64,000 nt of DNA from Candidatus Micrarchaeia archaeon (GCA_035533215.1 DATLUG010000006.1:3958-67957); one strand, 5' to 3'; counted from the first letter of the stretch, positions 4,955-59,517 are shown. Notes: a model not told the origin generated them from the sequence alone. Numbers and translations are program-made.

Positions 4955-5318
4955 GGTCAGGCCTCCGCCGGGCGCTCGGCCGCGGGCGGGCCCACCCCGT
5001 CTCGGACGCTGGCCCCCGGCTTCGACCCGGCGCGGCTGGAGGGCAGGCCCGCCTTGCGGCGTGGGCACCCCCCTGCGACCGATCGCGGCGCCGGTGCGAC
5101 AGGGGTGTCAGGCCACGGCGGGGAAAGGGAAGTCCCGGCTCGTGGCCAGCGCCAGGAGGGCCGGCAGCGAGCGCAGGGCTCCGAGCACCGTTGGCCGCTG
5201 CAGGGAGAACGAGCTCGGGTCACGACGAGAACGCAGCTGGACCGTCGGCGCCGCACGCATCCTCACCCCTCCCGCCAGCGTCAGCCTCGTCCGCGGAGCA
5301 TGAGCCGGGGCGGCCCGC

Positions 5319-8033: not shown

Positions 8034-8140
8034 GGTGGGATCGAGTCTGACAGCTTGCCCCGGCCGGGTGGGGCCGTCGCCGCGGCCGCCCGGGGGGGGG
8101 CCGGCGCGACACGGCGGCGTCCTCGGTGTACGCTCGGACC

Positions 8141-9082
8141 ATGACGACCACCGCCCTCCCCCAGGCCGCCGCCAGCGCCCCCTCCCGCCCCCGTGTGCGG
8201 CTCGACGACCTCGACCTCCCCACCGGCAAGCGGGCCCGCCTCCACACCCTCCTCCACGACCACGGCCCCGGCAACGGCACCCTCCTGCTCCTGCCCATCG
8301 ACCAGGGGCTGGAGCACGGCCCGGTCGACTTCTTCGTCAACCCGCCCGCGCTCGATCCCGACTTCCAGTGCCAGCTGGCGCTCCGCGGCGGCTTCTCGGG
8401 GATCGCCCTCCAGGTGGGGCTCGCCACCCGCTACCTGCGCCCGTACGCGGGCCGGGTGCCGCTGGTGCTGAAGGTCAACGGCAAGACCAACGTCCCGTCC
8501 GGGGACGACCCCATCTCGCCGCTGACGGCGTCGGTCGAGGACGCCGTCCGCCTGGGCGCCTCGGCGGTCGGCTACACCCTCTACGTCGGGTCCCCGGCCC
8601 AGGACCGCGACCTCCGCCAGATGAACGAGGTTCGCCAGGCCTGCGACCGCACCGGGATGCCGCTGATCTGCTGGGCGTACCCGAGGGGCGCGGCGATCGA
8701 GCGCCGGGGCGGCCAGAACAGCCTCTACGCCATCGACTACGCCGCCCGGGTGGCGGCCGAGATGGGCGCCGACGTGATCAAGCTCAACGTCCCGCAGGAG
8801 CACGGTGCCGCGGACGGGGCGTCCCCGGCGCCGTACGACACCCTCGCCGAGGACCGCCGCAGCATGCTGGCCCGGGTGATCCGCTCGGCCGGTCGGAGCC
8901 TGGTGATCTTCGCCGGCGGCAGCAAGCTGGCCGACGAGGCCCTGCTGGGGCGCATCCACGACGCGATGGCGGCCGGGGCGACCGGCTTCATCTTCGGCCG
9001 CAACATGTGGCAGCGGCCGATCGACGAGGCGCTGGCGATGACGGCGCAGGTACGCGAGCTGCTGGCCGCCTCCGGCGGCTGA
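8141..9082 (+). CDS. fbaB: Class I fructose-bisphosphate aldolase (DhnA/FbaB type)
   Basis: LPIDQGLEHGP, AVGYTLYVGS, WAYPRG, GADVIK (Schiff-base Lys), FAGG, GRNMWQR. Confidence 0.9.
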   Translation: MTTTALPQAAASAPSRPRVRLDDLDLPTGKRARLHTLLHDHGPGNGTLLLLPIDQGLEHGPVDFFVNPPALDPDFQCQLALRGGFSGIALQVGLATRYLRPYAGRVPLVLKVNGKTNVPSGDDPISPLTASVEDAVRLGASAVGYTLYVGSPAQDRDLRQMNEVRQACDRTGMPLICWAYPRGAAIERRGGQNSLYAIDYAARVAAEMGADVIKLNVPQEHGAADGASPAPYDTLAEDRRSMLARVIRSAGRSLVIFAGGSKLADEALLGRIHDAMAAGATGFIFGRNMWQRPIDEALAMTAQVRELLAASGG

Positions 9083-9101: not shown

Positions 9102-10544
9102 TCAGAAGCCGAGGAAGAGCGGCCGCGCCGCCCGCTGGGCCAGCCCGATCAGGGGGCCCGCGACCGGGCCGCCGAGGACGAGGGCGAGCCCGCACAGCCC
9201 CAGCCCGCACGCCACCAGCGGCTCCGGCCAGGAGACCTCGTCGCCCTCGGCGTCCGGGTCCAGCAGCACCGCGGCCCAGCGCAGCCCCGCCGCCCCGGCC
9301 AGCACCAGCGCCAGCGCCGCCACCCAGGCGACCCACCCGTAGCCGGCCGCGACCGCCGCGCCCAGGACGCTGAACCAGCTGAGGAAGCCGGCCAGCGGCG
9401 GCAGCCCGACGAGGGCGACGAGGACCAGCACCAGCGCCGCGCACGGCCCCGGCGAGCGTCCCCAGAGCCCGCGCAGCCGCTCCCGTCCGCTCCGCTCCTC
9501 GCCCACCCAGAGCACCACCCCGAGGCTGCCGGCGGCGAGGGGGGCCAGCAGCAGGGTGGCGAAGAGGGCCGCCGCCGCGCCGTGGCGGCTCTGCGCCGGC
9601 AGGGCGGTGAGCACCAGCGCCCCGTCCCCCGCGAGCAGGAGCAGGACCAGCTGGCGCAGGGTGCCGGCGCGGAGCGCCAGGGCCGCCGCGACCAGGGCGG
9701 TGCCGCTCCCCAGCACCGCCACCAGCACCGTCCAGGCGGCCGGGACGTGGGGGAAGCCGGCCTCGAGGACGCGCACCAGGGCGGCGAGGTCGGCGGTCCC
9801 CCCCACGACGCACACCGCCAGCACCGCGGCCAGCGGCGCCCGCCCGGCGCCGCTGGCGCGCCAGCCCAGGAACGGCCCCAGCCCCAGCAGCGCGCCGCCC
9901 CCCATCACCAGCGCGGTCGCCGCCAGCACCTGGGCCGGGTGGGGATGGGCGAGGGCGCGGGCGACCACCGCCAACCGGGTGGAGCCGGTCAACCCGTAGG
10001 TGACGACCACCCCCAGGAGGAGGCAGGCCACACCGGCGGCCAGCAGGCAGAAGGTCTGGAGTGCGGCGGCCGCCGCGGCCCCGTCCAGCTTGCGCAGCCC
10101 GACCAGAAGGCTCGCCGCCACCGCCGCCACCGTCAGGCCGACCGCGATCGTGACCAGATCCTGGCTGGCGGCGGTGACCATGCCGCCGAGGGTGAGGAGG
10201 AGGACCAGCGCGGTGAACTCCCCCTGCAGCGGCCAGAGGTCGCGGGCGGCCGCGGCGGTGCAGCAGAGCACCGCCACCGTCCCCGCCAGCAGGACGGCGT
10301 GGAGGAAGAGCGCGTAGCGGTCGACGAGGAAGCTGCCGTGCTCGATGTCGGGCACCGCCGGGCCCAGCGAGGGGTGCCAGAGCAGGACGCTGTCGGCGAA
10401 GGCGAAAAGGCAGGCGGCGATCCCGATCGCGGTCACCACGGAGGCGGGGTGCTCCCCGCGCCGACGCCCGGCGGCGAGGGCCGCCGCCGCGCCCAGCAGG
10501 ATCACCCCCTCGGGGCCGAGGTCGGCGAGGAAGCCCAGGGTCAC
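9102..10544 (-). CDS. NuoN-like antiporter-family membrane subunit, highly divergent
   Basis: FLVDRYALF, GEFTALVLL, YGLTGS, LRGLWGRSP, LVGLPPLAGF; GTG start overlaps the upstream TGA. Confidence 0.8.
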   Translation of the reverse strand: MTLGFLADLGPEGVILLGAAAALAAGRRRGEHPASVVTAIGIAACLFAFADSVLLWHPSLGPAVPDIEHGSFLVDRYALFLHAVLLAGTVAVLCCTAAAARDLWPLQGEFTALVLLLTLGGMVTAASQDLVTIAVGLTVAAVAASLLVGLRKLDGAAAAAALQTFCLLAAGVACLLLGVVVTYGLTGSTRLAVVARALAHPHPAQVLAATALVMGGGALLGLGPFLGWRASGAGRAPLAAVLAVCVVGGTADLAALVRVLEAGFPHVPAAWTVLVAVLGSGTALVAAALALRAGTLRQLVLLLLAGDGALVLTALPAQSRHGAAAALFATLLLAPLAAGSLGVVLWVGEERSGRERLRGLWGRSPGPCAALVLVLVALVGLPPLAGFLSWFSVLGAAVAAGYGWVAWVAALALVLAGAAGLRWAAVLLDPDAEGDEVSWPEPLVACGLGLCGLALVLGGPVAGPLIGLAQRAARPLFLGF

Positions 10545-12160
10545 CGAGGGCCCCCGCCCGCCGCCAGGACCAGCGCCGCGCCCACCACCGGCAGCGCCGG
10601 CACCGCCGGCACGATCGCAGCGGGCGCCTCGGCGGCGAGACGCCCGGAGACCAGGTCGGTGCCGTTGACCATGTAGGGCAGGAAGCGGCCCGACCCGAGC
10701 CCGAACAGGAGCAGGAAGGCGGTGAGGACCGCCCCCGCGTAGAGCTCCGAGCCCTCGGCGTCGCGCAGCCGGGGCACGTTCTCCCCCGGCGGCCCCAGGA
10801 ACACCCGGCTCCCGGCCCGCCACAGGGCCGCCCCCAGGACCAGGATCGCCAGGCAGCCCGCGGCCACCCCGTAGCGATGGGCCGGGAAGGTGCCCACGAA
10901 GACCTGGAGGAGGGCCGGGAAGCCCGCCAGCAGCGGGATCCCCACCACCCCCCCGGCCCCCACCACCCACAGCAGGCTGAGCCGGGGCGCCGGCTGGCCG
11001 CAGCCGCCCAGGTCGCTGAGCCGGCGGGCCCGGAGGCGCTCGGTGAGCGCGCCCGCGACCAGCAGCAGGAGCGGGAGGGCGAGGCTGGCCGCGAGGAGCA
11101 GGTAGAGGGCGCCGGCGATCGAGGTCTCGGAGGAGCCCACCATGCCGAGGACCACCAGGCCGCCCACGCACACCACCACGTAGCCGATCAGCCGGCGCAG
11201 CTCCTGGACGGCGTAGGCGCCGAAGGCGCCCCAGAGCATGGTGAGCACGGCCAGGCCCAGCAGGGGGGTGGCGAGGTGGTCGGCCCCCCGGGGGGCGGCG
11301 TCCAGCGCCACCCGGGCCAGGGTGTAGCCGCCGGTGAGCAGGCCGGTCGCGACCGTCAGCATCGCGATCGGCGGTCCCGAGGAGGAGACGGCGTCGATCA
11401 CCGGCAGGTGGCCCGGCACCAGCCCCATCCGCAGGATGCACGCCGCCACCACCAGCGCGAAGACCCCGGTCGAGACCCCGTGGGGCAGGGTCAGCTGGGT
11501 GGACAGGGTCCCGAGGTCGAGGCCCCGCTGGCCGGCGCGGCCCGAGAGCAGCAGCGCCGCACAGACCAGCAGGCCCGAGCCGAGCAGCCAGCTGGTGAGG
11601 AGGCGGCGGGCGGCGCGGGCGGCCCGGGGGCCGCCCCCGAGGCGGACCAGGAGGGCGACCGGGGCCACCGGCCAGAGGAAGAACAGGATGAGGAGGCCGA
11701 GGTCGTAGGCGGCGAGGCATCCCAGCAGCCCCACCCCGCTGAACAGGAGGAGGCCGAAGTGGAGACGGGTGCGCTCGCGCACCCGCCACGAGGCCAGCAC
11801 CACGACCACCAGCAGGATGGTGGCGACGAAGAGGAGCGGGAAGTTCAGGCCGTCGCCGCCGAGGTGGTAGCCCACCGGGACCGGCACCCCGGGGACCCAG
11901 CCGGCGCGGACCGCGGGCTGGGCCAGCCCGCCCTGGCCGGCGTTGGCGAGGACCCCGAAGAAGTCGAAGCCCGCGAACACGAACGAGACGAGGGCCGCCC
12001 CCAGGGCGGTCACCCGAACCCGGAAGCGCTGGAGGTCGGTCGCCACCGGAAGGCAGGCGATGATCCCCGCCCCCACCAGCGGCGCGAACACGATGATCGA
12101 GAGGGTGACGTCGGGCGGCGCCGCCGACCCCGCCAGCGCGACCAGGGCCGAGGCGATCAC
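10541..12160 (-). CDS. NuoM-like antiporter-family membrane subunit, divergent
   Basis: YHLGGDGL, AAYDLGLL, ELRRLIGY, LTERLRARRLSDLGG, GIPLLAGF, RVFLGP; GTGA coupling. Confidence 0.85.
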   Translation of the reverse strand: MIASALVALAGSAAPPDVTLSIIVFAPLVGAGIIACLPVATDLQRFRVRVTALGAALVSFVFAGFDFFGVLANAGQGGLAQPAVRAGWVPGVPVPVGYHLGGDGLNFPLLFVATILLVVVVLASWRVRERTRLHFGLLLFSGVGLLGCLAAYDLGLLILFFLWPVAPVALLVRLGGGPRAARAARRLLTSWLLGSGLLVCAALLLSGRAGQRGLDLGTLSTQLTLPHGVSTGVFALVVAACILRMGLVPGHLPVIDAVSSSGPPIAMLTVATGLLTGGYTLARVALDAAPRGADHLATPLLGLAVLTMLWGAFGAYAVQELRRLIGYVVVCVGGLVVLGMVGSSETSIAGALYLLLAASLALPLLLLVAGALTERLRARRLSDLGGCGQPAPRLSLLWVVGAGGVVGIPLLAGFPALLQVFVGTFPAHRYGVAAGCLAILVLGAALWRAGSRVFLGPPGENVPRLRDAEGSELYAGAVLTAFLLLFGLGSGRFLPYMVNGTDLVSGRLAAEAPAAIVPAVPALPVVGAALVLAAGGGPR

Positions 12161-14238
12161 GGGGCCGCCCCGCCGGCGTGGTGGAGCCCGACCCAGAGGG
12201 CGAAGCCGGCCACCGCCAGGACGAAGGTGGCCACCGTTGCCGCCGCGGCCGCCTCGCGGCGCCACAGGCACACCCGGTCGAGCCATCCGGCCGCCCCCCG
12301 CACCGCGTCCCCCACCGCTTGGAAGCCCGCCCCCTCGATCCTGGCGTCGACCGCCAGCAGCGCGCGTCCGGGCGCGGTGAGCAGCACCCGCTCAGCCGCC
12401 CCGAGCCCGCCGAGGGCGAGCGCCGCCGCCGCCGGCCTCGCCGGGTCCGGTCCGCCGCCGAGCTCGACGGAAGGGGGGCGGAGCCCATCCGTCTGCCCCA
12501 CGGGCGGTCGGGCGGGGCCGAGCCGGCCGCGCCAGCCGACCCAGGCGGCCGCCGCCGGCAGGGCCAGGGTCAGGAGCAGCGCCGCCCCGTTCACGGGAAG
12601 GCCCGGACCGCCGGGCGGGGTGGCGACGAAGGCCCCCAGGCTCGGCCCCACCCCGGGCAGGACCGCCAGCCCGCTGACCAGCGCGAGGCCGGCCGCCCCC
12701 AGCAGGGCCGGCGCGAGGGTCCGCCCGCCGCGGTCGGGCCGGGCGTGGGGCCGGCGGGGGTGGCGCCGCGGCGACGCCGGCTGCGGCTCGGGGATGGGGG
12801 CCAGCCCCCGCGCCACCGCGGCGGCGGCGGCGGCGCCGGCCACCACGACCCCGACCCCGGCCAGCAGCCGGGCCACCGGGTCGATCGCGGTCCCGGCCGG
12901 CAGCCGGGCGGCCCAGGCCGCGCCGAGGATGGCGGAACGGGCGAAGAACGCGCCCATCCCGACCCCGCCCCCGAGGGCGAGGCACCCGAGGAGGCAGGCC
13001 CACCCCACCGGCCCCTGGGACCGCATCGCCAGCCAGGACGGGCGGGGACCGCCGCCGCGGGCCGCCATCACCCCCAGCGCTCCGAGGACGGCGGGCGTCG
13101 CCAGCGCCACCGTGGCCGCCAGCGCGGCGGCGCCGGCCACCGTCCCCAGCCCGACGCCGACGACCGCGGTGGCCAGGCCGCTGGCGGCGAGCCAGAGCAC
13201 CCGGCGGTCCAGCGGACCGGTGCGGAACGCCAGCACGGCGAAGCCGGCGGCGGCGGCGGCGGCGGCGACCACCACCGCCGGGAGCACGTGGGTCGCGACC
13301 TCCAGCAGGACCACGGTGCGGCTGAGCACCGCCACCCCGCCCAGGCCCAGGCCGACGACCGCGATCCAGGCCGTGGCCACGCCCGCCGCCGACGTGGCCC
13401 GGCGCGAGACCGCGGTGAGGGCGACCGCCGCCACCAGGACGGCGGCCGCGGCCAGCTCCAGCACCGCGGCGAGGACCAGGGAGCGCGCCCCCACCCCGGT
13501 GACGGTGCCGTGCGGCGCCGCCAGCCAGCGGCCGGCGAGCGCCACGAAGCTGAAGCCGTCGGCGTAGGTGGCCGAGGGGTGGCGTCCGGAGGTGGCGGCG
13601 GCCTCGATCGCGCCCGAGAACTTGGCGTCCAGGAAGACCGCCGCCAGGACCAGGCCCACCGCGGCCAGCCAGCCGGCCAGGAACAGCCGGCGCGCCGCGA
13701 TCCGAAGGCCGACGGTGTGGGCGTCGTCGGCGGCGGCGAGGTAGCCGGCCAGAGCCAGGAGCCCCACCGCCGCGGCCGCCTGCACATACCCCGGTGCCAG
13801 CACCAGCCCCAGCGCCGCCGCCGTCGCGAGCGCCACCGCCCGGTGGAGGACCACGGTCTGGCCGGCGGCCCTGGAGGTGGAGAGGAGGAAGCACTGGAGG
13901 GTGAGCGCCGACACCGAGACCGCGAGGGCGAGGGTCACGCTGAGGGGGTCGACCAGGATCCCGACCGAGGGCTGGAGGGTCGCCGCCAGCAGGGTCCTGG
14001 TGGCGGCATTGAAGGGGGTCTGGATCACCGGGTAGGTGAAGACCGGCACCGTGTTCTGGTACGTGGGCCGACCCTGGGCGAGCTCGAAGCCGAGGAGGAG
14101 GACCGCGGCGACGACCACCAGCATCGCCCCCACGGTGAGGGTGACCGCGATCGCCCGGCGGGTCTCGACCGCATAGCTGAGGACGATGAAGGCGAGGGGG
14201 AGGAAGCAGACCGCCCACCCCAGGTTCAGCAGGGTCAC
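12157..14238 (-). CDS. NuoL-like antiporter-family membrane subunit, highly divergent
   Basis: About 693 aa, hydrophobic; GILVDPLSVTL, LGLVLAPGY, GAFFARSAIL; C-terminal amphipathic region AVDARIEG; J-K-L-M-N gene order. Confidence 0.75.
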   Translation of the reverse strand: MTLLNLGWAVCFLPLAFIVLSYAVETRRAIAVTLTVGAMLVVVAAVLLLGFELAQGRPTYQNTVPVFTYPVIQTPFNAATRTLLAATLQPSVGILVDPLSVTLALAVSVSALTLQCFLLSTSRAAGQTVVLHRAVALATAAALGLVLAPGYVQAAAAVGLLALAGYLAAADDAHTVGLRIAARRLFLAGWLAAVGLVLAAVFLDAKFSGAIEAAATSGRHPSATYADGFSFVALAGRWLAAPHGTVTGVGARSLVLAAVLELAAAAVLVAAVALTAVSRRATSAAGVATAWIAVVGLGLGGVAVLSRTVVLLEVATHVLPAVVVAAAAAAAGFAVLAFRTGPLDRRVLWLAASGLATAVVGVGLGTVAGAAALAATVALATPAVLGALGVMAARGGGPRPSWLAMRSQGPVGWACLLGCLALGGGVGMGAFFARSAILGAAWAARLPAGTAIDPVARLLAGVGVVVAGAAAAAAVARGLAPIPEPQPASPRRHPRRPHARPDRGGRTLAPALLGAAGLALVSGLAVLPGVGPSLGAFVATPPGGPGLPVNGAALLLTLALPAAAAWVGWRGRLGPARPPVGQTDGLRPPSVELGGGPDPARPAAAALALGGLGAAERVLLTAPGRALLAVDARIEGAGFQAVGDAVRGAAGWLDRVCLWRREAAAAATVATFVLAVAGFALWVGLHHAGGAAP

Positions 14239-42194: not shown

Positions 42195-42683
42195 TCATCC
42201 TCGCAGATCGGCCCGGCCGGTGGGCGCGCCCCGGCGCCGGATGGCGTTCGGGTCGGCGCCGAGCCAGGTCGGCGGGAGGGGACGGAGCCGCAGTCGGGCG
42301 ACCGCCCGCAGGTGGTGCGCCGCCACCGGCCCGAACTCGTCGCTGTCGGTGCTGTGCAGGGGGTCGTCGCCGCCGAGCCAGTAGGCGGAGCCGTCCCTCG
42401 TCCGGGCGACGACGCGCTTGATCACCTCCAGCTCGGGCCGCTTCGGGTGGACGGCCACCACCACCATCCCCAGCCGGACCCCCCGCCTGGGCGGCGTCGA
42501 CACCACCACCCAGGCCCCTGCGGGGAGGAGGGGCGCCATGCTGGGGCCGAGCACCCGCACCCACGACGGCCGCCAGCGCCACCCGCCCCACCCCGCCAGG
42601 GTGAGGAGTGCCACCGCCGGGACCCGTCCGATCCCCCATCCGCGGCGGCCACCGCGGATGGGGGCGGGTGTGCCGCTCGTCAT
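42195..42683 (-). CDS. sodX: Nickel-SOD maturation protease (S26 family)
   Basis: GPSMAP (Ser), VIKRV (Lys), WLGGDD...STDSDEFGPV; divergent from sodN. Confidence 0.88.
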   Translation of the reverse strand: MTSGTPAPIRGGRRGWGIGRVPAVALLTLAGWGGWRWRPSWVRVLGPSMAPLLPAGAWVVVSTPPRRGVRLGMVVVAVHPKRPELEVIKRVVARTRDGSAYWLGGDDPLHSTDSDEFGPVAAHHLRAVARLRLRPLPPTWLGADPNAIRRRGAPTGRADLRG

Positions 42684-42735
42684 CGGCGAATGGTACGGTT
42701 CGACCAGCGTCCGAGGGAGACAGGAGGCTCATCCC

Positions 42736-43155
42736 ATGCTGACCGCGCTGCGTGCACGGCTCTCGCCGCGCCGCGTCGTCCATGCCCACTGCGACATCCC
42801 CTGCGGGATCTACGACCCCCACGAGGCCCAGCTGGCGGCGCAGACGGTGGAGACCATGGTCACCAAGCTGCAGGCCCTGCCCAACGACAACTCGGAGTCG
42901 GCGCGCAACAGCTTCACCCGCATGGTGGCGGTCAAGGAGGCCCACGCCGAGCGGGTCAAGCGCGAGGTGCTGATCATCTGGGGCGACTACATGAAGCCCG
43001 AGCACCTCGCCGCCGCTCCCGACCTGCACGACATGGTGTGGAAGACGGTCAAGCTGGCGTCCGCCTGCAAGCAGTCGATCGATGCCGGCACGGCGGCGGA
43101 GCTGCGGCGCGCGGTGGACGAGTTCGCCCGGGTGTTCGCGGCGACCAAGAAGTAG
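42736..43155 (+). CDS. sodN: Nickel superoxide dismutase precursor
   Basis: 17-aa propeptide then Ni-hook HCDIPCGIYDP; WGDYMKP; AGGAGG RBS. Confidence 0.97.
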   Translation: MLTALRARLSPRRVVHAHCDIPCGIYDPHEAQLAAQTVETMVTKLQALPNDNSESARNSFTRMVAVKEAHAERVKREVLIIWGDYMKPEHLAAAPDLHDMVWKTVKLASACKQSIDAGTAAELRRAVDEFARVFAATKK

Positions 43156-51261: not shown

Positions 51262-51335
51262 TGGAGGCGACTCCGGGAATCGAACCCGGGATCGCGGTTT
51301 TGCAGACCGCTGCCTTACCACTTGGCTAAGTCGCC
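51262..51335 (-). tRNA. tRNA-Cys(GCA)
   Basis: GGCGACTTAGCCAAGTGGTAAGGCAGCGGTCTGCAAAACCGCGATCCCGGGTTCGATTCCCGGAGTCGCCTCCA; TACAAT upstream. Confidence 0.97.
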
Positions 51336-51517: not shown

Positions 51518-52330
51518 GTGGGCGAGACCCAGCACCGCCCTCGATCGGACGCCGACCTGGTGGTCGAGACCCAGGGCGCGGTGACCAGGCTCCGGCTCAA
51601 CCGGCCGGAGCGGCTGAACGCCCTCACCCTGGCGCTGCTGACCGATATCCACCGCCGCGTGGTCGAGATCGCGCACACCGGCACCTGCCGCTGCCTCGTC
51701 ATCACCGGGACCGGTCGAGGCTTCTGCGCCGGGCAGTCGCTCGAGGAGGTCCGTGAGGCAGCGAACCTCGGCGATCGAGTCCGCACCATCCTCCAGCAGG
51801 GCTACCTCCCGCTCGTCAGCGCCCTGGTCGGGCTGGAGCTCCCGGTGGTGGCCGCCATCAACGGGGTGACCGCCGGCTCGGGACTCTCGCTCGCGCTGGC
51901 CTGCGACCTGCGCGTCGCCAGCGACGAGGCCACCTTCACCTGCGCGTTCAGCCGGGTCGGCCTGGTCCCCGATGCCGGCGCCACCCTGCTGCTGCCCCGT
52001 GCCGTTGGCTGGTCGGCCGCAGCCGACCTCGCCCTCACCGGCCGCCGGGTCGACGCCGACGAGGCGCTCCACCTCGGCCTCGTCCATCGGGTCTTCCCGG
52101 CGGCGACGTTCGCGGCGGGCGCGGCAGCCGCCGCGGCCGAGCTCGCGGCGGGTCCCACCCGAGCGCTCGGTCTCACCAAGCGGGCGCTCAGCCGGTCCTG
52201 GACGGCGAGCCTCGAGGAGCAGCTCGCGATCGAGACCGACCTCCAGGTCGAGGCGTCAGGGACGGCTGACGGGCGCGAGGGCATCGCTGCCTTCGTGGCC
52301 GGGCGCCGCCCCACCTTCCGCGGCTCCTGA
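51518..52330 (+). CDS. Enoyl-CoA hydratase/isomerase (PaaG-like)
   Basis: LNRPERLNA, GRGFCAGQ, AAINGVTAGSG, GLVPDAG, DGREG; AGGAGG RBS. Confidence 0.88.
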   Translation: MGETQHRPRSDADLVVETQGAVTRLRLNRPERLNALTLALLTDIHRRVVEIAHTGTCRCLVITGTGRGFCAGQSLEEVREAANLGDRVRTILQQGYLPLVSALVGLELPVVAAINGVTAGSGLSLALACDLRVASDEATFTCAFSRVGLVPDAGATLLLPRAVGWSAAADLALTGRRVDADEALHLGLVHRVFPAATFAAGAAAAAAELAAGPTRALGLTKRALSRSWTASLEEQLAIETDLQVEASGTADGREGIAAFVAGRRPTFRGS

Positions 52331-52387
52331 CCGTGCGGCGCTACGCTTGATCTCAGCGGTCGGCTTCGATCCGCAGGAGGCTCCCTG

Positions 52388-52918
52388 ATGGCGCGGGTCT
52401 GGATGCAGTTCCCCAACCCGGTGAACGAGGTCGCGGCCCGGGTGGTCGCGGGGGGTGTCGCGGTCGTGGCCGTGCTCGCGATCGCCCTCGACCAACCCTG
52501 GCTCAGCGCGGTGCTCGCCTACGGCTTCCTCGCCCGGGTGGCCGCCGGCCCGACCCTCAGCCCCCTCGGCCAGCTGGCGACCCGGGTGGTGGCGCCCCGC
52601 CTCTCCCCACGGCCCCGGCTGGTGGCGGGACCCCCGAAGCGCTTCGCGCAGGCGATCGGCGCGGTCCTGACGGTGGCCGCCACCGTCGCCTTCTTCGGCT
52701 TCGGCGCCACCACCGTCACCGAGGTGCTGCTGGGCGTGCTGGTCGCGGCCGCGACCCTGGAATCGGCGCTCGGCCTCTGCCTGGGCTGCCGCATCTTCGC
52801 CGTGCTGATGCGGTGGGGATGGGTGCCGGCGGAGGTCTGCGCCGCCTGTGCCGACCTCGGCGGCCCGGCGGCGCAGGCGCGTCGGGCGGCGGCCACCCCG
52901 GTCGGCGGCGGCCGCTGA
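52388..52918 (+). CDS. DUF4395-family membrane protein
   Basis: FPNPVNE.AAR, GPPKRFAQAIG, LES.LGLCLGC. Confidence 0.8.
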   Translation: MARVWMQFPNPVNEVAARVVAGGVAVVAVLAIALDQPWLSAVLAYGFLARVAAGPTLSPLGQLATRVVAPRLSPRPRLVAGPPKRFAQAIGAVLTVAATVAFFGFGATTVTEVLLGVLVAAATLESALGLCLGCRIFAVLMRWGWVPAEVCAACADLGGPAAQARRAAATPVGGGR

Positions 52919-52948
52919 CCAGGGCGGCGTCCCCGACCCGGCTCCAGC

Positions 52949-53749
52949 CTACCGGTGGAGCGGGTGGCGCACGATCAGGATGCTCAGCTCGTACAGGACG
53001 ATGAGCGCGGTCGAGAGCAGCGCCGGCGTGAACGGGTCCGCCCCGGGGGTGATGACGAGCGCGACGGCCACGATGCTGAAGATCGCCGGACGGCGCCACC
53101 GGCGCAGCGTGGCGCTGCTGACGACACCCAGCGCCCCCAACAGGCTGACCACCACCGGCATCTCGAAGGTGACCCCGAAGACCACCATCACCAGGGTGAA
53201 GAACGAGAGGTAGGCGTTGAGGTCGGGCAGATAGACGGCATCGGTGCCGAGGAAGCCGGCCAGGAAGCTGAGCCCGACCGGCATGACCAGGTAGGCGAAG
53301 GTGGCACCGACGGCGAAGCAGACCACGCTGCCCGCGATGAACGGCCCCGCCAGCCGGCGCTCGGCCCGCCGCAGCCCGGGCGCGACGAACGTGAAGGCCT
53401 GCCAGGCGACGATCGGCAGCGCCCCCGCCAGCCCGGCCAGGACCGCCACCTTGAACGGGATCGAGAGCCCCTCGATCGGGCTGGTGACGATGACCGTGCT
53501 GCCGAAGGGCGAGGGGCCGCGATGGAGCAGGGCCAGCTTCAGGGGACGCTCGAGCAGCTGGATCAGCGCGTGGTTGAAGATGAATGCCAGGGCGGTCGTC
53601 CCCGCCCAGGCGATCAGGCAGACGATGAGGACCCGGCGGAGGTCCTCCAGGTGCTCCACCACCGTCTGGCCCGGAGCGGGGTCCTCGTCGCCGGCCCCCG
53701 CCCCCGACATCGGGGGAACGAGGGTCTCGGCGATGGAGCGGGTGGCCAT
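52949..53749 (-). CDS. tatC: Twin-arginine translocase TatC
   Basis: EHLEDLRR, FVAPGL...E, FEMP, ITPGADP, LYELSI. Confidence 0.95.
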   Translation of the reverse strand: MATRSIAETLVPPMSGAGAGDEDPAPGQTVVEHLEDLRRVLIVCLIAWAGTTALAFIFNHALIQLLERPLKLALLHRGPSPFGSTVIVTSPIEGLSIPFKVAVLAGLAGALPIVAWQAFTFVAPGLRRAERRLAGPFIAGSVVCFAVGATFAYLVMPVGLSFLAGFLGTDAVYLPDLNAYLSFFTLVMVVFGVTFEMPVVVSLLGALGVVSSATLRRWRRPAIFSIVAVALVITPGADPFTPALLSTALIVLYELSILIVRHPLHR

Positions 53750-53773
53750 CGTGGGTCGCCTCCCTGGGGGCGG

Positions 53774-54067
53774 TCAGCGACCGGCGGCGTCGCCGGCTGG
53801 GGTGCTGGCCGGCACCGGGCCGGCGCCGTTCGCCATCGGCACCGCCGCCGTGACGGGCTGGGTGGTGGCGGTGGTCGTGGTCGTCGAGGCGCCCGCGAGG
53901 TCGGTGACCTCGGTCATGTGATGGGCGGCCTGGGCGGAGGCGTGCTTGAACTCCTGGATGGCGCGGCCGACGCTGTGGCCGAGCTCCGGCAGCCGCTTGG
54001 GGCCGAACACCACCAGGGCCAGCACGACCAGCAGGCCGAGGAGCGCGATATGGGACGGCGCGAGCAT
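53774..54067 (-). CDS. tatA: Twin-arginine translocase TatA
   Basis: TM helix, FGPKRLPELGHSVGRAIQEFK; AGGAGG RBS. Confidence 0.93.
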   Translation of the reverse strand: MLAPSHIALLGLLVVLALVVFGPKRLPELGHSVGRAIQEFKHASAQAAHHMTEVTDLAGASTTTTTATTQPVTAAVPMANGAGPVPASTPAGDAAGR

Positions 54068-54151
54068 GGGAAACCCTCCTGGATCGACGGTCGCTCGGGC
54101 GGTCCGGGGAGCGCTGCACGCCCCGGCCCGCCGGAGCCTCACACCCCGTCC

Positions 54152-54179
54152 TACGCGCCCGGCCCCGCCCCGGATCACC
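54152..54179 (-). promoter_or_regulatory. ECF sigma promoter for tatAC
   Basis: GGTGATCC-N16-CGTA on - strand. Confidence 0.7.
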
Positions 54180-54200
54180 CCGGCCGCCGCCGGTCCCCCG

Positions 54201-55043
54201 TCAGGCCAGGCTCGCCCGCAGCAGCACCGGCCCCAACGGCACCCGATCGTGGCGGGACGGCTCCAGGGTGATCGCGACGGCGGCGAACCCTCTCGGCGCG
54301 CGCGGCATCCGGAAGACCCCGGCGCGGGTCACGGCTGCGATCGGCACCGGCCGGGAGCCGCCGGCGCGGTGGCGGACGTACCACAGCATGTACACGGTCG
54401 AGCCCCGGACTGGACGGACGCCGGTGACGACGAGGTAGGCGGCCCCGGCCCTCGGGCGCATGACCAGGGCGGCGCCACCCGGGGCCCGCCCGGTCGCCTG
54501 CAGCGCCACCACGGTGGCGCCCCCGCTCAGCAGTCCCGTGATCCCCACCACGCCGGGGCCGCCCGCGCCGGGCGCCGCCGGCGGCCGCTGCAGGTGCTCG
54601 GCCACCCCCCAGCCCAGGCCGCTCAGCGCCAGGACGGCGGCGGCCGCCGCCGCCGTCCAGCCCGCCTGGGAGCGGGCCCACCACCGCGCGCCCGGGGCCC
54701 GATCCGGGACCGGCCCCGCCGCCGGCGGTGGCACCAACGGCAGCGCTGCGGGGACGGGGGGCGCCGGCGCGGCGGCTCCCCCCTCGACCCGCGCCGCCGC
54801 CAGCACCCGAGCGCGCAGAGCGGGGGGAGGCGCGACCGGGGGCACGGACATCGCCAGGCAGGCCGCCACCCCTCGGAACGCCCGCTCCTCGGCGGCGCAG
54901 TCCGCGCAGCCCTGCAGATGCTCGGTCACCGCCGCCGCCTCGTCCGGCTCCAGGCCGTCGAGCACATGGGCGCCCAGCAGGTCACGCACCGAGTCGCAGC
55001 CCGAGCCCGGGCCGCCGGCGGTGCCGGGGGGACCGCCCATCAC
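54201..55043 (-). CDS. RskA-like anti-sigma factor with ZAS zinc motif
   Basis: HLQGCADC (HxxxCxxC), PPPALRARVL, one TM, YMLW, AVAITLEP; GTGA coupling to the sigma gene. Confidence 0.9.
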   Translation of the reverse strand: MMGGPPGTAGGPGSGCDSVRDLLGAHVLDGLEPDEAAAVTEHLQGCADCAAEERAFRGVAACLAMSVPPVAPPPALRARVLAAARVEGGAAAPAPPVPAALPLVPPPAAGPVPDRAPGARWWARSQAGWTAAAAAAVLALSGLGWGVAEHLQRPPAAPGAGGPGVVGITGLLSGGATVVALQATGRAPGGAALVMRPRAGAAYLVVTGVRPVRGSTVYMLWYVRHRAGGSRPVPIAAVTRAGVFRMPRAPRGFAAVAITLEPSRHDRVPLGPVLLRASLA

Positions 55044-55636
55044 CACTCCCCCACCTCGGCCGCGGCGCTGCCCCGGAGGACCCGGCGGAGGTGGTCGAGG
55101 GCCAGACGGGTGCGGCTCTTCACGGTGCCCAGGGCGAGGCCGGTGCGGACCGCGATCTCCCGCTGCGACAGTCCCGCGAAGTAGGCCCACTCCAGGATCT
55201 GCCGCTGGGTCGCGGGCAGCTCGGTGATCGCCCGCCGGACGGCAGCCGCCCGGACCCCCTCGGTCACGGCCAGCCAGGTGTCGCTGGCCGCCACCAGCTC
55301 CGGGCCGTCATCGAGGGGGACGGCCGATCCGGCGCCGACCCGACGCCGGAGCCGGTCCACCGCCCGGTTGCGGACGATGGTCAGCAGCCAGGTCCGAAGG
55401 CTGGTCCGCTCCGGCTGGTAGACGTCAGCCCGTCGCCAGAGCGCGAGGAAGGCGTCCTGGACCACCTCCTCGGCGGTCGCCTGGTCGCGCAGCATCCGGA
55501 GCGCGAGGCCGTAGGCGGCGCTGGCGTGGCGATCGTAGAGCGCCCCCAAGGCGTCCTCGTCGCGCCTCCGCAGCCGCCACATCAGGCGCTCGTCGCCGTC
55601 GGTCTGCTGGGGCGGGGCGGGGGCAGCGGCGAGCAT
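55040..55636 (-). CDS. ECF sigma factor (SigK-like)
   Basis: LYDRH, AEEVVQDAFLALW, WLLTIVRNRAVD, AYFAGLSQREIA, LGTVKSR. Confidence 0.93.
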   Translation of the reverse strand: MLAAAPAPPQQTDGDERLMWRLRRRDEDALGALYDRHASAAYGLALRMLRDQATAEEVVQDAFLALWRRADVYQPERTSLRTWLLTIVRNRAVDRLRRRVGAGSAVPLDDGPELVAASDTWLAVTEGVRAAAVRRAITELPATQRQILEWAYFAGLSQREIAVRTGLALGTVKSRTRLALDHLRRVLRGSAAAEVGEW

Positions 55637-55651
55637 CTCCTCGTCCGCTCC

Positions 55652-55679
55652 TTCGCGAGGGGGACCGTCTCGGATCACC
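55652..55679 (-). promoter_or_regulatory. Autoregulatory ECF promoter for the sigma/anti-sigma operon
   Basis: GGTGATCC-N16-CGAA on - strand. Confidence 0.7.
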
Positions 55680-55848
55680 GGACCATCATCGGGCACCGTG
55701 GGGCGGGAGGGAGGGCACCGGCGGGGTCCTGGCTCGGAGGGCGGGGCGGCACCGGCGCCGACCGATCGGCGCGCCGATCGGGATGGCCGGCTCCGTTCCG
55801 GTGGGCATCCCGCCGACCCGGGCCCGGCTCCCCCGCCGCGGGACGGGA

Positions 55849-55877
55849 GGTGATCCGCTCCGGCCCGACTGCTCGTA
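55849..55877 (+). promoter_or_regulatory. ECF promoter for the Tat-peptide/DUF4331 operon
   Basis: GGTGATCC-N17-CGTA on + strand. Confidence 0.7.
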
Positions 55878-55938
55878 TGCGCTGACGAGCCCCCGAGGCG
55901 GGCTCCATCCAGACCCGGCGGACTCGGAGGCACACGGC

Positions 55939-56229
55939 ATGCAGAAGATCACTCGGCGGACGTTCCTCACCCGGACCTCGCTCGGCGTCGCCGCCGCCGG
56001 GGCGATGGCGACGATCCCGGGAGCCGGGGTCCTGGCGGCCACCCGCCGCAAGGGCCAGGCGGCGCCCCTCGGCGCGGCGATCGCCGCCGGTCACCTCACC
56101 CGCTCGGGTCCGCTGGTGATCACCATCCCCGACCCGCGCGACGGCAGCCTCTCCTTCTTCTCCGGCGAGAGCGAGGTGACCCGCCACGACCCGCAGCTGG
56201 TGGCGAACCTCCTCCGCAGCCTCGCCTGA
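55939..56229 (+). CDS. Small twin-arginine signal protein
   Basis: MQKITRRTFL plus hydrophobic h-region; short mature domain PLVITIPDPRDGSLSFFSGESEVTRHDPQLV; GGAGG RBS. Confidence 0.82.
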   Translation: MQKITRRTFLTRTSLGVAAAGAMATIPGAGVLAATRRKGQAAPLGAAIAAGHLTRSGPLVITIPDPRDGSLSFFSGESEVTRHDPQLVANLLRSLA

Positions 56230-56271
56230 TCCACCGTCCTCAGTTCCAGACCACCCCACCGAGGTATCCGC

Positions 56272-57723
56272 ATGTCCTCCCACCGTGAGGCGCCCGCGAT
56301 CTCCAAGGACCCCGCCGCCGACAGCACTGACGTCTACGCGTTCGTCAGCCCCGACCGGCCCGACACGGTGACCCTGATCGCCAACTACGTCCCCCTCCAG
56401 GACCCCGCCGGCGGGCCGAACTTCTTCGAGTTCGGCGACGACGTCATGTACCAGATCCTGGTCGACAACGACGGCGACGGCAAGGCCGACGTCTGGTATC
56501 AGTTCCGGTTCTGGACCGAGGTCGAGGACCGCAACACCTTCCTCTACAACACCGGTCCGATCACTTCGCTCACCAGCTCCACCTGGAACCGGCGCCAGTA
56601 CTACCGGGTCACCCGGGTGACCCCGGGCACGAGCGAGGTCCTGGCGGCCAAGCTGGGCTGCCCCCCGTGCAACATCGGCCCGCTGTCCACCCCCAACTAC
56701 GCGGGCCTGGCCGGCCAGGCGATCCACCCACTCCCGGGCGGCCGCCGGGTGTTCGCCGGCCAGCGCGCGGACGGCTTCTACGTCGACCTCGGCTCGGTCT
56801 TCGACCTCCTCGACCTGCGTCCCTTCCAGAACCTCAACATCGCCCCCCGCCCGGCGGCGGCGGGCGTCAACGGGCTCGCCGGACTCAACGTCCACAGCAT
56901 CGCCCTCCAGGTCCCCAAGAGCGACCTGACCCGGGGCGGCGCGGCTGGGACCGACGCCACCAGCCCCACCTCGGTGATCGGGGTCTGGACCTCTGCCAGC
57001 CGGCAGCGGGCCCGGGTCTGGGACAGCAAGGACGGAGCCAACCTCAACATCGGTCCCTGGGTGCAGGTCTCGCGGATGGGCAACCCGCTCGTCAACGAGG
57101 TGATCAACCCGCTCGGGGTCAAGGACGCCTGGAACTCGTATCCGCCCGCGGGCGACTCCCGCTACCTCCAGTACGTCGAGCACCCCGAGCTGGCGGGCCT
57201 CCTGCCCGTCCTCTACCCAACGGTGTTCCCCAACCTCGCCGCGGTCGTCAAGGCCGGAACCGCCCGGGCCGACCTGGTGGCGGTGCTCCTGACCGGCATC
57301 CCGGCCGGCATCATCAAGGGCTTCCAGAACTACACCGGCACAGTCCAGGCGGACATGCTCCGCCTCAACTGCGCCGTCTCCCCCACCGCCAAGCCGAGCC
57401 TGCTCGGGCTCCTGGGCGGCGACGCCGCCGGCTTCCCCAACGGACGCCGGGTCTTCGATGACGTGACCACCATCGAGCTCCGGGCCGTGGCCGGAGCCAC
57501 CCTTCCCCTCGTCGACCCCTCGTTCAAGCCCGACGCCGCGGTCAGCCTGGTCTACGACGATGTCGACCCCGCCAAGCACACCCCCCAGTCGCTGGCCAGC
57601 ACCCTGGGCGTCAGCTACCTGTCCAGCTTCCCCTACCTCGGCACCCCCTACGACGGCTTCGACGCGGTGACCGGGACCAGGGCCGCGAACGCCCACGGCG
57701 CCCCCCGCTCGTCGGCCGCCTGA
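56272..57723 (+). CDS. DUF4331-family protein without a signal peptide
   Basis: MSSHREAP, DSTDVYAF, FAGQRADGFYVDLG, QVSRMGNPLVNE, GFPNGRR..DDV, FPYL. Confidence 0.85.
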   Translation: MSSHREAPAISKDPAADSTDVYAFVSPDRPDTVTLIANYVPLQDPAGGPNFFEFGDDVMYQILVDNDGDGKADVWYQFRFWTEVEDRNTFLYNTGPITSLTSSTWNRRQYYRVTRVTPGTSEVLAAKLGCPPCNIGPLSTPNYAGLAGQAIHPLPGGRRVFAGQRADGFYVDLGSVFDLLDLRPFQNLNIAPRPAAAGVNGLAGLNVHSIALQVPKSDLTRGGAAGTDATSPTSVIGVWTSASRQRARVWDSKDGANLNIGPWVQVSRMGNPLVNEVINPLGVKDAWNSYPPAGDSRYLQYVEHPELAGLLPVLYPTVFPNLAAVVKAGTARADLVAVLLTGIPAGIIKGFQNYTGTVQADMLRLNCAVSPTAKPSLLGLLGGDAAGFPNGRRVFDDVTTIELRAVAGATLPLVDPSFKPDAAVSLVYDDVDPAKHTPQSLASTLGVSYLSSFPYLGTPYDGFDAVTGTRAANAHGAPRSSAA

Positions 57724-57755
57724 GCACCCCCACCAACACCAGAGGACCAGCCGCC

Positions 57756-58061
57756 ATGGACCACCCCGCCATCCCCACCCAGCCGGTCGGTCCGGTGATG
57801 ATCGACATCGGCGCCACCCACGGCGCCGTCGTCGTGCGGGCTCCCGGCCTCGCCGGCCGGGAGATCGAGATCAGCCCGAAGGAGACACCCCAGCGCCGCC
57901 AGCACGTGGCGGTCCTCCCCAGGGCGCTCCCCGCGGGGCCGGTCCACGCGGCGGTCTTCGCCAGCCTGCCGGCGGGCCCCTACCTGCTCTGGGACCCGGC
58001 CGGCGGGCCCCCCCGCCCGGTGCTCGTCCGGGCGTCGACGGTCACCGACCTCGACTGGTAG
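57756..58061 (+). CDS. Small beta-rich hypothetical protein co-transcribed with DUF4331
   Basis: VMIDIG..HGAVVV, GREIEISP, HVAV, AAVFASLPAGPYLLW; GAGGA RBS. Confidence 0.7.
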   Translation: MDHPAIPTQPVGPVMIDIGATHGAVVVRAPGLAGREIEISPKETPQRRQHVAVLPRALPAGPVHAAVFASLPAGPYLLWDPAGGPPRPVLVRASTVTDLDW

Positions 58062-58114
58062 GCGGCGGCCCCGCCGGGCGGGCCCGGATCGGCGGCGGTG
58101 GGACAATCGCCGCC

Positions 58115-59080
58115 ATGCCGACCCCGGGCGCCGCCGGCCCGTGCCACGATGTCGCCGCCCCCGCGGCGGCGGCCCTCGACGGTCGCCGGCTGGCGCGGCG
58201 CCTGGGCCCGGTCGGCGTCTCCTTGGGCCAGCTCGCGCTCGCCGACGCTGCCACCCTCCGCCAGGGGGTGCGCACCATCGAGCAGCTCGGCTTCGGCGCC
58301 ATCTGGTGCGGTGAGGCCTCCGGCCGGGAGGCCCTCACCCAGGCGGCGATCGTCCTCGCCGCGACCGAGCGGATCGTCGTCGCGACCGGGATCGCCAACA
58401 TCTGGGCCCGCGATCCGGTGGCGATGGCCAACGGGGCGCGGGCGCTCGCCGAGGCCTGGCCCGGGCGCTTCGTCCTCGGGCTGGGCGCCAGCCACGCGCG
58501 CCTGGTCGAGCCCCGCGGCCACCGCTACCTGCCGCCGCTGGCGGCGATGCGGCGGTACCTGACCCAGCTCGCCGCCGCCCCCTACACCGCCCCCCTGCCG
58601 GAGCCGCCGCCGGCGACGGTGCTGGCGGCGCTGGGTCCGCGGATGCTGCACCTGGCCGGCGACAGCGCCGACGGCGCCCACACCTACTTCGTGCCGGTGG
58701 GCCACACCCGCTGGGCCCGCCAGCTCCTCGGCCCCTCCCCGCTGCTGGCGCCCGAGCAGGGATGCGTCGTGGCCCCCGACCGCGCGGCCGCCCGTGCCGT
58801 CGCGGACGCTCACCTGCGCACCTACCTCGGGCTGCCCGCCTACCGGCGCAACCTGGAGCGCCTCGGCTGGTCCCCGGCCGACTGCGAGGGGGGCGGCAGC
58901 GACAGGCTCTTCGACGCGCTGATCGGCTGGGGCTCCGCAGACGCCATCGCCGAGCGGGTCCGCACCCAGCTCGACGCGGGAGCCGACCACGTCGCGGTGC
59001 AGGTGCTCACCCCCGGGCGCGACGCTCCGCTCCTGGACCAGCTGCGGCCGATCGCCGGCCCGCTCCTGCAGTCCCGCTGA
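58115..59080 (+). CDS. LLM-class (probably F420-dependent) oxidoreductase
   Basis: VATGIANIW, GRFVLGLGASH, LAALGPRML, DGAHTY, AGADHV. Confidence 0.88.
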   Translation: MPTPGAAGPCHDVAAPAAAALDGRRLARRLGPVGVSLGQLALADAATLRQGVRTIEQLGFGAIWCGEASGREALTQAAIVLAATERIVVATGIANIWARDPVAMANGARALAEAWPGRFVLGLGASHARLVEPRGHRYLPPLAAMRRYLTQLAAAPYTAPLPEPPPATVLAALGPRMLHLAGDSADGAHTYFVPVGHTRWARQLLGPSPLLAPEQGCVVAPDRAAARAVADAHLRTYLGLPAYRRNLERLGWSPADCEGGGSDRLFDALIGWGSADAIAERVRTQLDAGADHVAVQVLTPGRDAPLLDQLRPIAGPLLQSR

Positions 59081-59517
59081 GCCCTTCCTCGCCGCCCCGC
59101 GGGCCCCTCCGCGACCAGCCGGCGCGCCCTGAGGGCGACCGGGCCCGGCGGCCGCTCCGCCCCTGGCGGGCGGCCTTCCGCGACGCCGGCCGCGGGGTCG
59201 CATGGGCCGCCCGCCACGAGCGCCACATGCGGGTCCACCTGGCGGCGGCGGCGGCGGTGGTGGCGGCCGGGCTCGGGATCGGGATCCCCCCGGCGGCCTG
59301 GGCGGCCCTGGTCTTCGCGATCGCCCTGGTGGTGGTGGCGGAGCTGGTCAACACCGCGGTCGAGACCCTGAGCGACCTCGCCCACCCGGCTCCCGACCCC
59401 GCCATCGGCCGGCTCAAGGACCTCGCCGCGGGCACGGTCCTGGTCGCCGCCACCGCGGCCGCGGTGGTGGGCCTGCTGGTGCTGGTGCCGGCCCTCCTCC
59501 ACCGGCTCGGCCACTGA
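59077..59517 (+). CDS. dgkA: DgkA/UdpK-family membrane kinase; probable CTG start
   Basis: F..A..G...ERHMRVH, AELVNTAVE, KDLAAG. Confidence 0.87.
   Translation: MSPSSPPRGPLRDQPARPEGDRARRPLRPWRAAFRDAGRGVAWAARHERHMRVHLAAAAAVVAAGLGIGIPPAAWAALVFAIALVVVAELVNTAVETLSDLAHPAPDPAIGRLKDLAAGTVLVAATAAAVVGLLVLVPALLHRLGH

Follow-up and report, generated by a model that had tools for sequence, protein, structure and literature searches.

Piggy-back export via the pathway of twin-arginine translocation (Tat) is known from a handful of enzyme complexes. The Streptomyces tyrosinase MelC2 leaves the cell as a hitchhiker on MelC1, a protein that also loads copper (PMC2758597, available excerpt). On the regulatory side, the accessible part of a classification of extracytoplasmic function (ECF) sigma factors (PMC7826278) gives TGCATCTT / CGTA for the promoters of ECF18 and 'ATC' / 'CG or TG' for those of ECF19. 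In its tables of conserved neighbors, DUF4331 stands at +2 of ECF18s13 and also appears in ECF214s1, and position -1 of ECF19s27 is taken by an mttA/Hcf106 protein; the gene association was thus tabulated earlier, in that part of the source without interpretation. Here we analyzed a stretch of 64,000 nucleotides (nt) deposited under Candidatus Micrarchaeia archaeon (GCA_035533215.1 DATLUG010000006.1:3958-67957), hereafter the window. It contains a module that joins an ECF sigma factor and its anti-sigma factor, a tatA-tatC pair, and a three-gene cassette encoding a small protein with a Tat signal (the mini-protein), a DUF4331 protein lacking a signal peptide, and a 101-amino-acid (aa) protein, p101. 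The best explanation, which we hold to be moderately probable, is a sigma-controlled regulon with piggy-back Tat export of a metal-handling DUF4331 protein.

The sigma, anti-sigma, tatA, and tatC genes form a co-directional run on the minus strand, divergent from a plus-strand run of the mini-protein, DUF4331, p101, and luciferase-like genes. Pfam, NCBIfam, and the reading of open reading frames (ORFs) agreed on the gene content that had been claimed in an earlier note made by a model from the sequence alone (the sequence-only reading). The features are as follows, with positions counted along the window.

52949-53749, minus strand: tatC, 266 aa (Pfam TatC E 8.8e-57; TIGR00945 167.5 bits, cut-off 132.7).
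53774-54067, minus strand: tatA, 97 aa, start codon ATG at 54067, preceded at 8 nt by GGAGG (PF02416 E 3e-13).
54152-54179, minus strand: GGTGATCC-N16-CGTA, a putative promoter motif of ECF type; the tatA start follows 84 nt downstream (pattern match).
54201-55043, minus strand: anti-sigma factor, 280 aa, GTG start (zf-HC2 E 8.6e-9; RskA_C E 3.7e-10; NF052375 105.7 bits, cut-off 100).
55040-55636, minus strand: ECF sigma factor, 198 aa, SigK-like (ECF18/19 clade; Sigma70_r2 E 2e-20; r4_2 E 3.2e-14).
55652-55679, minus strand: GGTGATCC-N16-CGAA, a putative promoter motif of ECF type and putative autoregulation site; the sigma ATG follows 15 nt downstream (pattern match).
55849-55877, plus strand: GGTGATCC-N17-CGTA, a putative promoter motif of ECF type; the mini-protein ATG follows 61 nt downstream (pattern match).
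55939-56229, plus strand: Tat mini-protein, 96 aa, TRRTFL, the proposed carrier (own profile; no Pfam/NCBIfam family).
56272-57723, plus strand: signal-less DUF4331 protein, 483 aa, start MSSHREAP, own GAGG ribosome-binding site, the proposed passenger (PF14224 E 3.8e-141).
57756-58061, plus strand: p101, 101-aa beta-sandwich protein, third gene of the cassette (locus profile; AlphaFold2 [AF2] model).
58115-59080, plus strand: luciferase-like monooxygenase gene, 54 nt downstream of p101 (Pfam Bac_luciferase E 3e-28).

DUF4331 genes were scanned in one genome per species, which gave 515 relatives. The best 80 of the 515 loci were kept; as labelled, they comprise 6 Dormibacterota, 14 Chloroflexia or Ktedonobacterales, 56 Actinomycetota, and 4 other metagenome-assembled genomes (MAGs). 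Profiles of the mini-protein and p101 were built from clusters of neighboring ORFs. All 80 kept loci encode a signal-less DUF4331 protein. The mini-protein gene was located directly upstream of it in 79 of 80 testable loci (window included), mostly with gaps of 0-130 nt, and p101 lay downstream of DUF4331 in 76 of 79 loci. A tblastn search of plasmids found 34 records with DUF4331, of which nine were examined. Eight of these genes are signal-bearing, with extensions of 22-81 residues that end before SSHREAP, and neither the mini-protein nor p101 is encoded beside any of them; by contrast, both are present beside the single signal-less gene (Kitasatospora, L085). The mini-protein therefore accompanied 80 of 81 signal-less and 0 of 8 signal-bearing DUF4331 genes (Fisher p 1e-10, a rough guide only because the genomes are related). 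Co-occurrence of this kind had been proposed as a check in the sequence-only reading, and it held.

In the window, the signal of the mini-protein reads ITRRTFL and is followed by a hydrophobic region. Across the family, which is 80-100 residues long, an invariant RR pair is followed first by a hydrophobic stretch rich in Ala and Gly, then by a variable linker, and last by a conserved C-terminal block of ~40 residues (approximately P-x-V-A-Y-V-x-D-x3-G-E-I-S-x-M-x-G-x2-E-V-V-x2-D-x2-L-V). All 69 aligned sequences share R6 and R7, and an RR regular expression matched 77 of 79 mini-proteins. The two proteins have the makeup of a hitchhiker pair, with a twin-arginine signal on the proposed carrier and no signal peptide on the proposed passenger. 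No Pfam or NCBIfam family was found for the mini-protein, and matches of its profile to solved structures covered Tat signal regions only. A word-based protein search returned just six relatives, so the family is easily missed. Three apparent fusions of the mini-protein domain to longer proteins were all frameshifted read-through gene calls and were discarded; the absence of natural fusions is weak evidence. The Kitasatospora mini-protein (L085:5388-5903) carries DHDHDHD in the linker just before the conserved domain. The mini-carrier family, the cassette, and the combination of parts appear undescribed, while the single parts (ECF regulon, Tat hitchhiker, substrate-linked Tat pair) are known.

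The motif GGTGATCC-N{16,17}-CGWA matched exactly three times in the 64-kb window, against a mean of 0.02 in shuffled sequences (0 of 100 shuffles reached three). The matches are the three sites claimed in the sequence-only reading, and all are correctly oriented, one each ahead of tatA-tatC, the sigma/anti-sigma pair, and the mini-protein operon. GGTGATCC alone occurred 10 times versus 3.3 expected, a number that none of 100 shuffles reached. In the remaining seven, no CGWA half follows at that spacing; the copy at 8875-8882, within a DeoC-type aldolase gene (8126-9082), had already been pointed out as lacking it, and the other six had gone unmentioned. The nearest relatives of the window are Dormibacterota MAGs, the closest of them L001, whose DUF4331 protein is 86% identical. 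In alignments with L001, the intergenic DNA has diverged, yet GTGATCC and CGTA/CGAA are kept as blocks at all three sites.

Furthermore, 18 of 70 loci have TGATCC-N15-18-CGWA in the 200 nt upstream of the mini-protein gene, compared with a background of 39 matches in 2.33 Mb (0.0034 per 200 nt). Within 6 kb of the cassettes there were 68 motif matches: 26 before the mini-protein gene (window included), 7 before tatA, 3 before sigma genes, 1 before tatC, and 31 before none of these. Part of the 31 were inspected; one precedes a NicO-like gene, one a tautomerase gene, and the rest of those inspected genes without a Pfam family. One Solirubrobacterales locus (L037) repeats the design of the window, with the motif before sigma, tatC, tatA, and the mini-protein gene. 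The form of the motif fits the -35/-10 descriptions of ECF18 and ECF19 promoters in the accessible part of the classification (PMC7826278). These comparisons support the reading of the motif as a putative ECF18/19-type promoter, in agreement with the ECF-type promoter proposed earlier, and TGATCC-N16-CGAA 15 nt before the sigma ATG would place a promoter typical of the group upstream of the sigma factor's own gene.

The sigma factor consists of regions 2 and 4 only and, by its profile scores, is SigK-like and not a SigK equivalog. The gene for the RskA-domain anti-sigma factor follows, with a GTG start that overlaps the sigma stop. The anti-sigma factor has an N-terminal zinc-finger motif, HLQGCADC (H-x3-C-x2-C), a single hydrophobic segment near residue 165, and a C-terminal RskA domain; the zinc-finger motif bears out its earlier assignment as ZAS-type.

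TatA and TatC of the window are both full length (PF02416 E 3e-13; TIGR00945 above cut-off), the components of a minimal TatAC, and the tatA start region is conserved in L001. Among 81 loci, a Pfam-confirmed tatA adjoins the cassette in 8 (window, L001, L022, L037, L039, L043, L052, and L060) and tatC in 6 (window, L001, L035, L037, L052, and L060). Every tat-bearing locus belongs to the 26 that have the motif, and the other 55 contain no tat gene beside the cassette (Fisher p 5e-5 and 7e-4, with loci that are not independent). The motif precedes seven of the eight cassette-adjacent tatA genes. The arrangement varies by lineage: tatA may be divergent from the mini-protein gene, or upstream and co-directional; tatC may lie directly upstream of the mini-protein gene; or tatA-tatC may follow p101. 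Three loci (L022, L039, and L043) have tatA without tatC. Together, the differing arrangements and the tatA-only loci suggest that extra Tat components have been recruited repeatedly.

The tatA-tatC pair of the window might instead be the sole housekeeping Tat system, located beside the cassette by chance, with the motif as an additional promoter or a chance match. Consistent with this, TatC passes the general TIGR00945 cut-off, no further tat gene was seen in the 64-kb window, and in five other Dormibacterota loci the cassette has no adjacent tat gene. However, the motif that precedes tatA is conserved in L001 and turns up again in front of tatA in five Solirubrobacterales-type loci, and the three of these that have tatA alone look as if they carry an extra copy. 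We regard a housekeeping role as possible but doubtful.

Under the reading of piggy-back export, the DUF4331 protein would be the passenger. It matches PF14224 over its whole length (profile 1-421 of 421), with profile position 1 at residue 2, and its ORF cannot be extended upstream. Its best 120 homologs (65-100% identity, 452-483 aa) all start with MSSH, which makes the signal-less form the rule for a large clade and not an oddity. An exhaustive search of cluster representatives found 5714 DUF4331 relatives. In the best 150 of these, 87 are extended to just before SSHREAP, 31 start with MSSH, and 32 lack the motif in the first 90 residues and were taken to be fragments. Signal-like extensions were thus present in 87 of 118 N-terminally complete representatives, with a hydrophobic core in 82 of the 87, and the statement in the sequence-only reading that many DUF4331 homologs carry a signal was correct. 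Bacteroidota DUF4331 proteins, seen among Atlas neighbors, carry sorting tails of the type IX secretion system (T9SS). On a Sulfitobacter plasmid (L084), a signal-bearing DUF4331 gene lies within a type II secretion gene cluster. Judging from the signal-like extensions, the T9SS tails, and the type II secretion cluster, the DUF4331 family is extracytoplasmic.

In the 87 extended sequences, the residue three before the His is A in 80, G in 5, and S in 2; the fifth position before it holds A, V, T, S, G, or L; and the two residues directly before it are SS in 82, AS in 4, and TS in 1. From this pattern, signal peptidase would leave X-S-His, and removal of Met from M-S-S-H would give the same end. 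The amino-terminal Cu(II)- and Ni(II)-binding (ATCUN) motif has His at position 3 of a free N-terminus and binds Cu(II) or Ni(II) via the free amine, two amides, and His3. With cleavage and Met removal as predicted, the mature DUF4331 chain has His at position 3 and no Pro at position 2, as in the ATCUN form. The SS, AS, or TS before the His argues against an N-terminal nucleophile and fits an ATCUN motif. His4 is invariant in 80 of 80 aligned DUF4331 sequences, and His208 is conserved in 79 of 80. The AF2 model (predicted local distance difference test score [pLDDT] 84, pTM 0.87) has low confidence at residues 1-8 and in the C-terminal tail. A search of the DUF4331 profile against solved structures gave no match at E <= 1. 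'DUF4331' and 'SHREAP' occurred in no main text of the literature searched, with ~1.7 million PubMed Central articles and most subscription journals outside the coverage; the only mention of DUF4331 found was the context table in the supplement of the ECF classification (PMC7826278, accessible part).

The third protein of the cassette, p101, was modeled by AF2 as an eight-strand beta sandwich (pLDDT 89.4), and its only fold neighbors are generic beta sandwiches resembling Ig or CBM folds (TM 0.45-0.57), with no hit at E <= 0.001. The automatic name 'phospholipase family protein', given to Atlas clusters without a Pfam family, was not adopted. Residues G23, E36, H50, and G74 are invariant, and a tail with at least three His is present in 11 of 33 orthologs. 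In 15 Chloroflexota-type loci (e.g., L002:11465-12376), the p101 domain forms the N-terminal part of a protein of ~300 aa, fused to a conserved C-terminal domain of ~190 aa in which no Pfam family and no hydrophobic segment were found.

These properties bear on the view that DUF4331 of the signal-less clade works in the cytoplasm, while the mini-protein is exported or inserted into the membrane separately and serves the same pathway, e.g., as an outside sensor or a permease partner. The DUF4331 protein has no signal peptide, locus L038 keeps DUF4331 without a mini-protein gene, and p101 is also signal-less and often has a His-rich tail, as in cytoplasmic metallochaperones. However, relatives of DUF4331 are exported with the same predicted mature N-terminus (87 of 87) or carry T9SS tails; the mini-protein is confined to signal-less DUF4331 genes; its conserved part amounts to just ~40 residues; and tat genes cluster with the cassette. 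A cytoplasmic DUF4331 is, in our view, unlikely. In a variant of piggy-back export, the Tat signal of the mini-protein would stay uncleaved as a membrane anchor, as in Rieske proteins, and hold DUF4331 at the outer face beside a permease. Single-membrane phyla would lose a freely secreted metal binder, and the mini-protein profile weakly matches signal-anchor regions of Rieske subunits (E 0.1-0.2); against this, small-x-small sites follow the hydrophobic region in 72 of 72 mini-proteins, although this heuristic is uninformative because the regions are Ala-rich. We consider such an anchor quite unlikely. Finally, that the mini-protein ORF and DUF4331 are halves of one Tat-signal DUF4331 gene broken by a stop codon is highly improbable: the two share a frame in the window, with TGA and 14 codons between them, and three database 'proteins' join them, but the relative frame is spread 25/26/28 over the three frames in 79 loci, which refutes this reading and makes the shared frame in the window a matter of chance, DUF4331 has its own GAGG and ATG and a family profile that begins at residue 2, and the three joined proteins hold out-of-frame stretches and are read-through gene calls.

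The proposed exported DUF4331 protein recurs beside genes for metal transport. In 17 of 81 loci, a gene for a permease of the NicO family (PF03824) lies downstream of p101; five of the eight signal-bearing plasmid DUF4331 genes have one for HupE/UreJ or an annotated nickel transporter downstream. The His-rich tails of 11 of 33 p101 orthologs also count toward a metal link. In L052, a NicO-like gene (27.9 bits versus a Pfam cut-off of 27.7) is divergent from the mini-protein gene behind a second copy of the motif. A Fur-family regulator gene is present in 7 of 81 loci (0 of 26 motif-bearing versus 7 of 55 motif-less loci, p 0.09). Between the divergent Fur-family and mini-protein genes of four related Thermoleophilia loci (L058, L063, L071, and L080), at ~9590-9620, we found TTGCAG-N5-TTGCAC, which resembles the Nur box, tTGCaa-N5-ttGCAA, as given in the available part of PMC2691836. 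The window also encodes a Ni-superoxide dismutase (PF09055, E 4e-43; 42418-43155, plus strand) 13 kb from the module, which indicates that the organism uses nickel. Because nickel-type permeases (NicO, HupE/UreJ) recur beside DUF4331, we infer that this is probably a metal-linked export module, most likely for nickel, and not a general stress module; the stress-inducible module of the sequence-only reading was therefore given up in favor of the nickel-type metal handling to which the gene neighborhoods point.

The following sequence of events would account for these findings. The module would form the small regulon of a SigK-like (ECF18/19-clade) sigma factor, which a membrane anti-sigma factor carrying RskA and zinc-finger domains would hold back. 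Once released by a presumed inducing signal, the sigma factor would read three (GG)TGATCC-N16/17-CG(T/A)A promoters, namely those of its own operon, of tatA-tatC, and of the three-gene cassette. In the cytoplasm, the ~40-residue domain of the mini-protein would bind folded DUF4331, perhaps together with p101, and its Tat signal would take the complex through TatAC in piggy-back ('hitchhiker') fashion. Outside the cell, DUF4331 would present a Ser-Ser-His N-terminus, the same mature end as in its signal-bearing relatives and of the ATCUN form, and would most likely handle nickel-type metals with NicO- or HupE/UreJ-type permeases.

Several observations weigh against this explanation. The sigma factor scores below both NCBIfam cut-offs (PRK12519, 159.3 versus 222 bits; SigK PRK09646, 138.9 versus 226 bits). 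Unlike redox-sensing SigK, it has 0 cysteines in 198 aa and hence no sigma-4 disulfide switch; in the accessible part of the ECF classification, the sigma-4 cysteine pair (redox switch) is present only in some subgroups (PMC7826278). The strict motif is missing before the mini-protein gene in 55 of 81 loci, and tatA is not nearby in 73 of 81. An RR pair occurs in the signal of only 8 of 87 signal-bearing relatives, which implies that the DUF4331 family does not generally need Tat. The low confidence of the model at residues 1-8 is compatible with a flexible metal-binding tail and is not a demonstration of one. Foldseek gave no hit to the model at E <= 0.001 and best TM-scores of 0.06-0.11, so that nothing about function can be read from the fold. 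The module of the window contains neither a NicO nor a Fur-family gene, and the metal link thus rests on other genomes. In 1 of 80 loci, L038 (9945-11377), a signal-less DUF4331 gene has neither the mini-protein nor p101 gene adjacent. Finally, the genomes are related and mostly MAGs, and the counts overstate the number of independent events. In L038, TGATCC-N16-CGTA stands directly before the DUF4331 start, and a SigK-like sigma gene lies downstream.

A broader proposal can be made more tentatively. DUF4331 might represent an undescribed class of extracytoplasmic metal-capture proteins with a fold that lacks relatives among solved structures, whose processed ATCUN-type Ser-Ser-His end takes up nickel (or copper/cobalt) for NicO or HupE/UreJ permeases. 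In single-membrane soil phyla, the signal peptide would have been lost, and the protein would be exported folded via a dedicated 40-residue docking domain joined to a Tat signal, helped by a His-tailed beta-sandwich partner, under the control of either a Nur-like repressor or an ECF sigma factor by which extra TatA(C) is induced as well. We consider this whole picture possible, though not the likelier outcome. If piggy-back export is true, a very small carrier (~40 conserved residues and a Tat signal) would serve a large uncharacterized family across at least three phyla, and in some lineages one sigma factor would drive both the cassette and extra Tat components. The module would offer a compact natural system for studying passenger acceptance by Tat, a testable function (metal handling, probably of nickel) for DUF4331, a family with thousands of members, and, in the little-studied Dormibacterota, a defined group of targets for a sigma factor of ECF18/19 type.

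The DNA of the window is ~77% G+C and chromosomal, with housekeeping genes including recR, dnaX, the trp operon, eno, and secG. The luciferase-like gene occupies the position after p101 only in the window and L001 (85% identity) and is possibly a lineage-specific extra member of the operon; no terminator-like site was found between it and p101. Scans of 52300-59300 gave 0 sigma-70-like promoters and 0 intrinsic terminators. The single Rfam match is a tRNA gene at 51265-51335 (minus strand; RF00005, 69 bits) between peptidase-like and enoyl-CoA hydratase genes. A gene for a DUF4395 membrane protein (52388-52918, plus strand; E 1.4e-36) is convergent with tatC and was found by tblastn in 0 of 80 loci. 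Elsewhere in the window, AT skew is unusually high (0.41-0.44) at 10001-14000, a region that includes a Mrp/Nuo-type membrane subunit gene, and an RHS-repeat ORF (E 2e-13) is located at 3650-5068 (minus strand) amid housekeeping genes.

Compared with known systems, the regulatory part is closest to SigK-RskA and other ECF18/19 pairs. It shares with them an ECF sigma gene followed by a gene for an anti-sigma factor that has one helix plus zinc-finger and RskA domains, a putative small regulon of exported proteins, a CGTA-type -10 element, and, in some subgroups, DUF4331 and mttA/Hcf106 as conserved neighbors (PMC7826278, accessible part). It differs in the SigK score of the sigma factor (139 bits versus a cut-off of 226), in the absence of cysteine, and in a -35 element of TGATCC rather than TGCATCTT. 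The phoD-tatAd-tatCd genes of Bacillus subtilis also encode a TatA-TatC pair beside its own substrate gene and are co-induced, in the available part of PMC3068169; PhoD carries its own Tat signal, and the genes respond to phosphate starvation, not to an ECF sigma factor.

Among export complexes, PaoABC of Escherichia coli resembles the cassette in that one Tat-signal subunit carries two signal-less ones, and it may serve as a model for the mini-protein, DUF4331, and p101. It is, however, a cofactor-rich enzyme with large subunits, whereas here the proposed carrier is a mini-protein and p101 a possible passenger. The melC operon of Streptomyces, an actinobacterium, has the same order of a small upstream Tat-signal gene and a downstream gene for a signal-less metalloprotein, to judge from the available excerpt. 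In sequence, however, MelC1 matched the mini-protein only in the signal-peptide regions (3aws_B, E 0.0037, residues 1-40); here, the carrier is conserved over ~40 residues, the passenger is unrelated, p101 is nearly always third, and binding is proposed. The signal-bearing DUF4331 operons share with the cassette the protein family, the same predicted mature N-terminus, and a nickel-type permease downstream, and on a Pseudoalteromonas plasmid an ECF/anti-sigma pair lies upstream of a signal-bearing DUF4331 gene that is preceded by TGCATCC-N16-CGTA. They differ from it in that their DUF4331 has its own signal peptide, the mini-protein and p101 are absent (0 of 8), and a TPR protein or other hypothetical proteins are encoded in the neighboring place.

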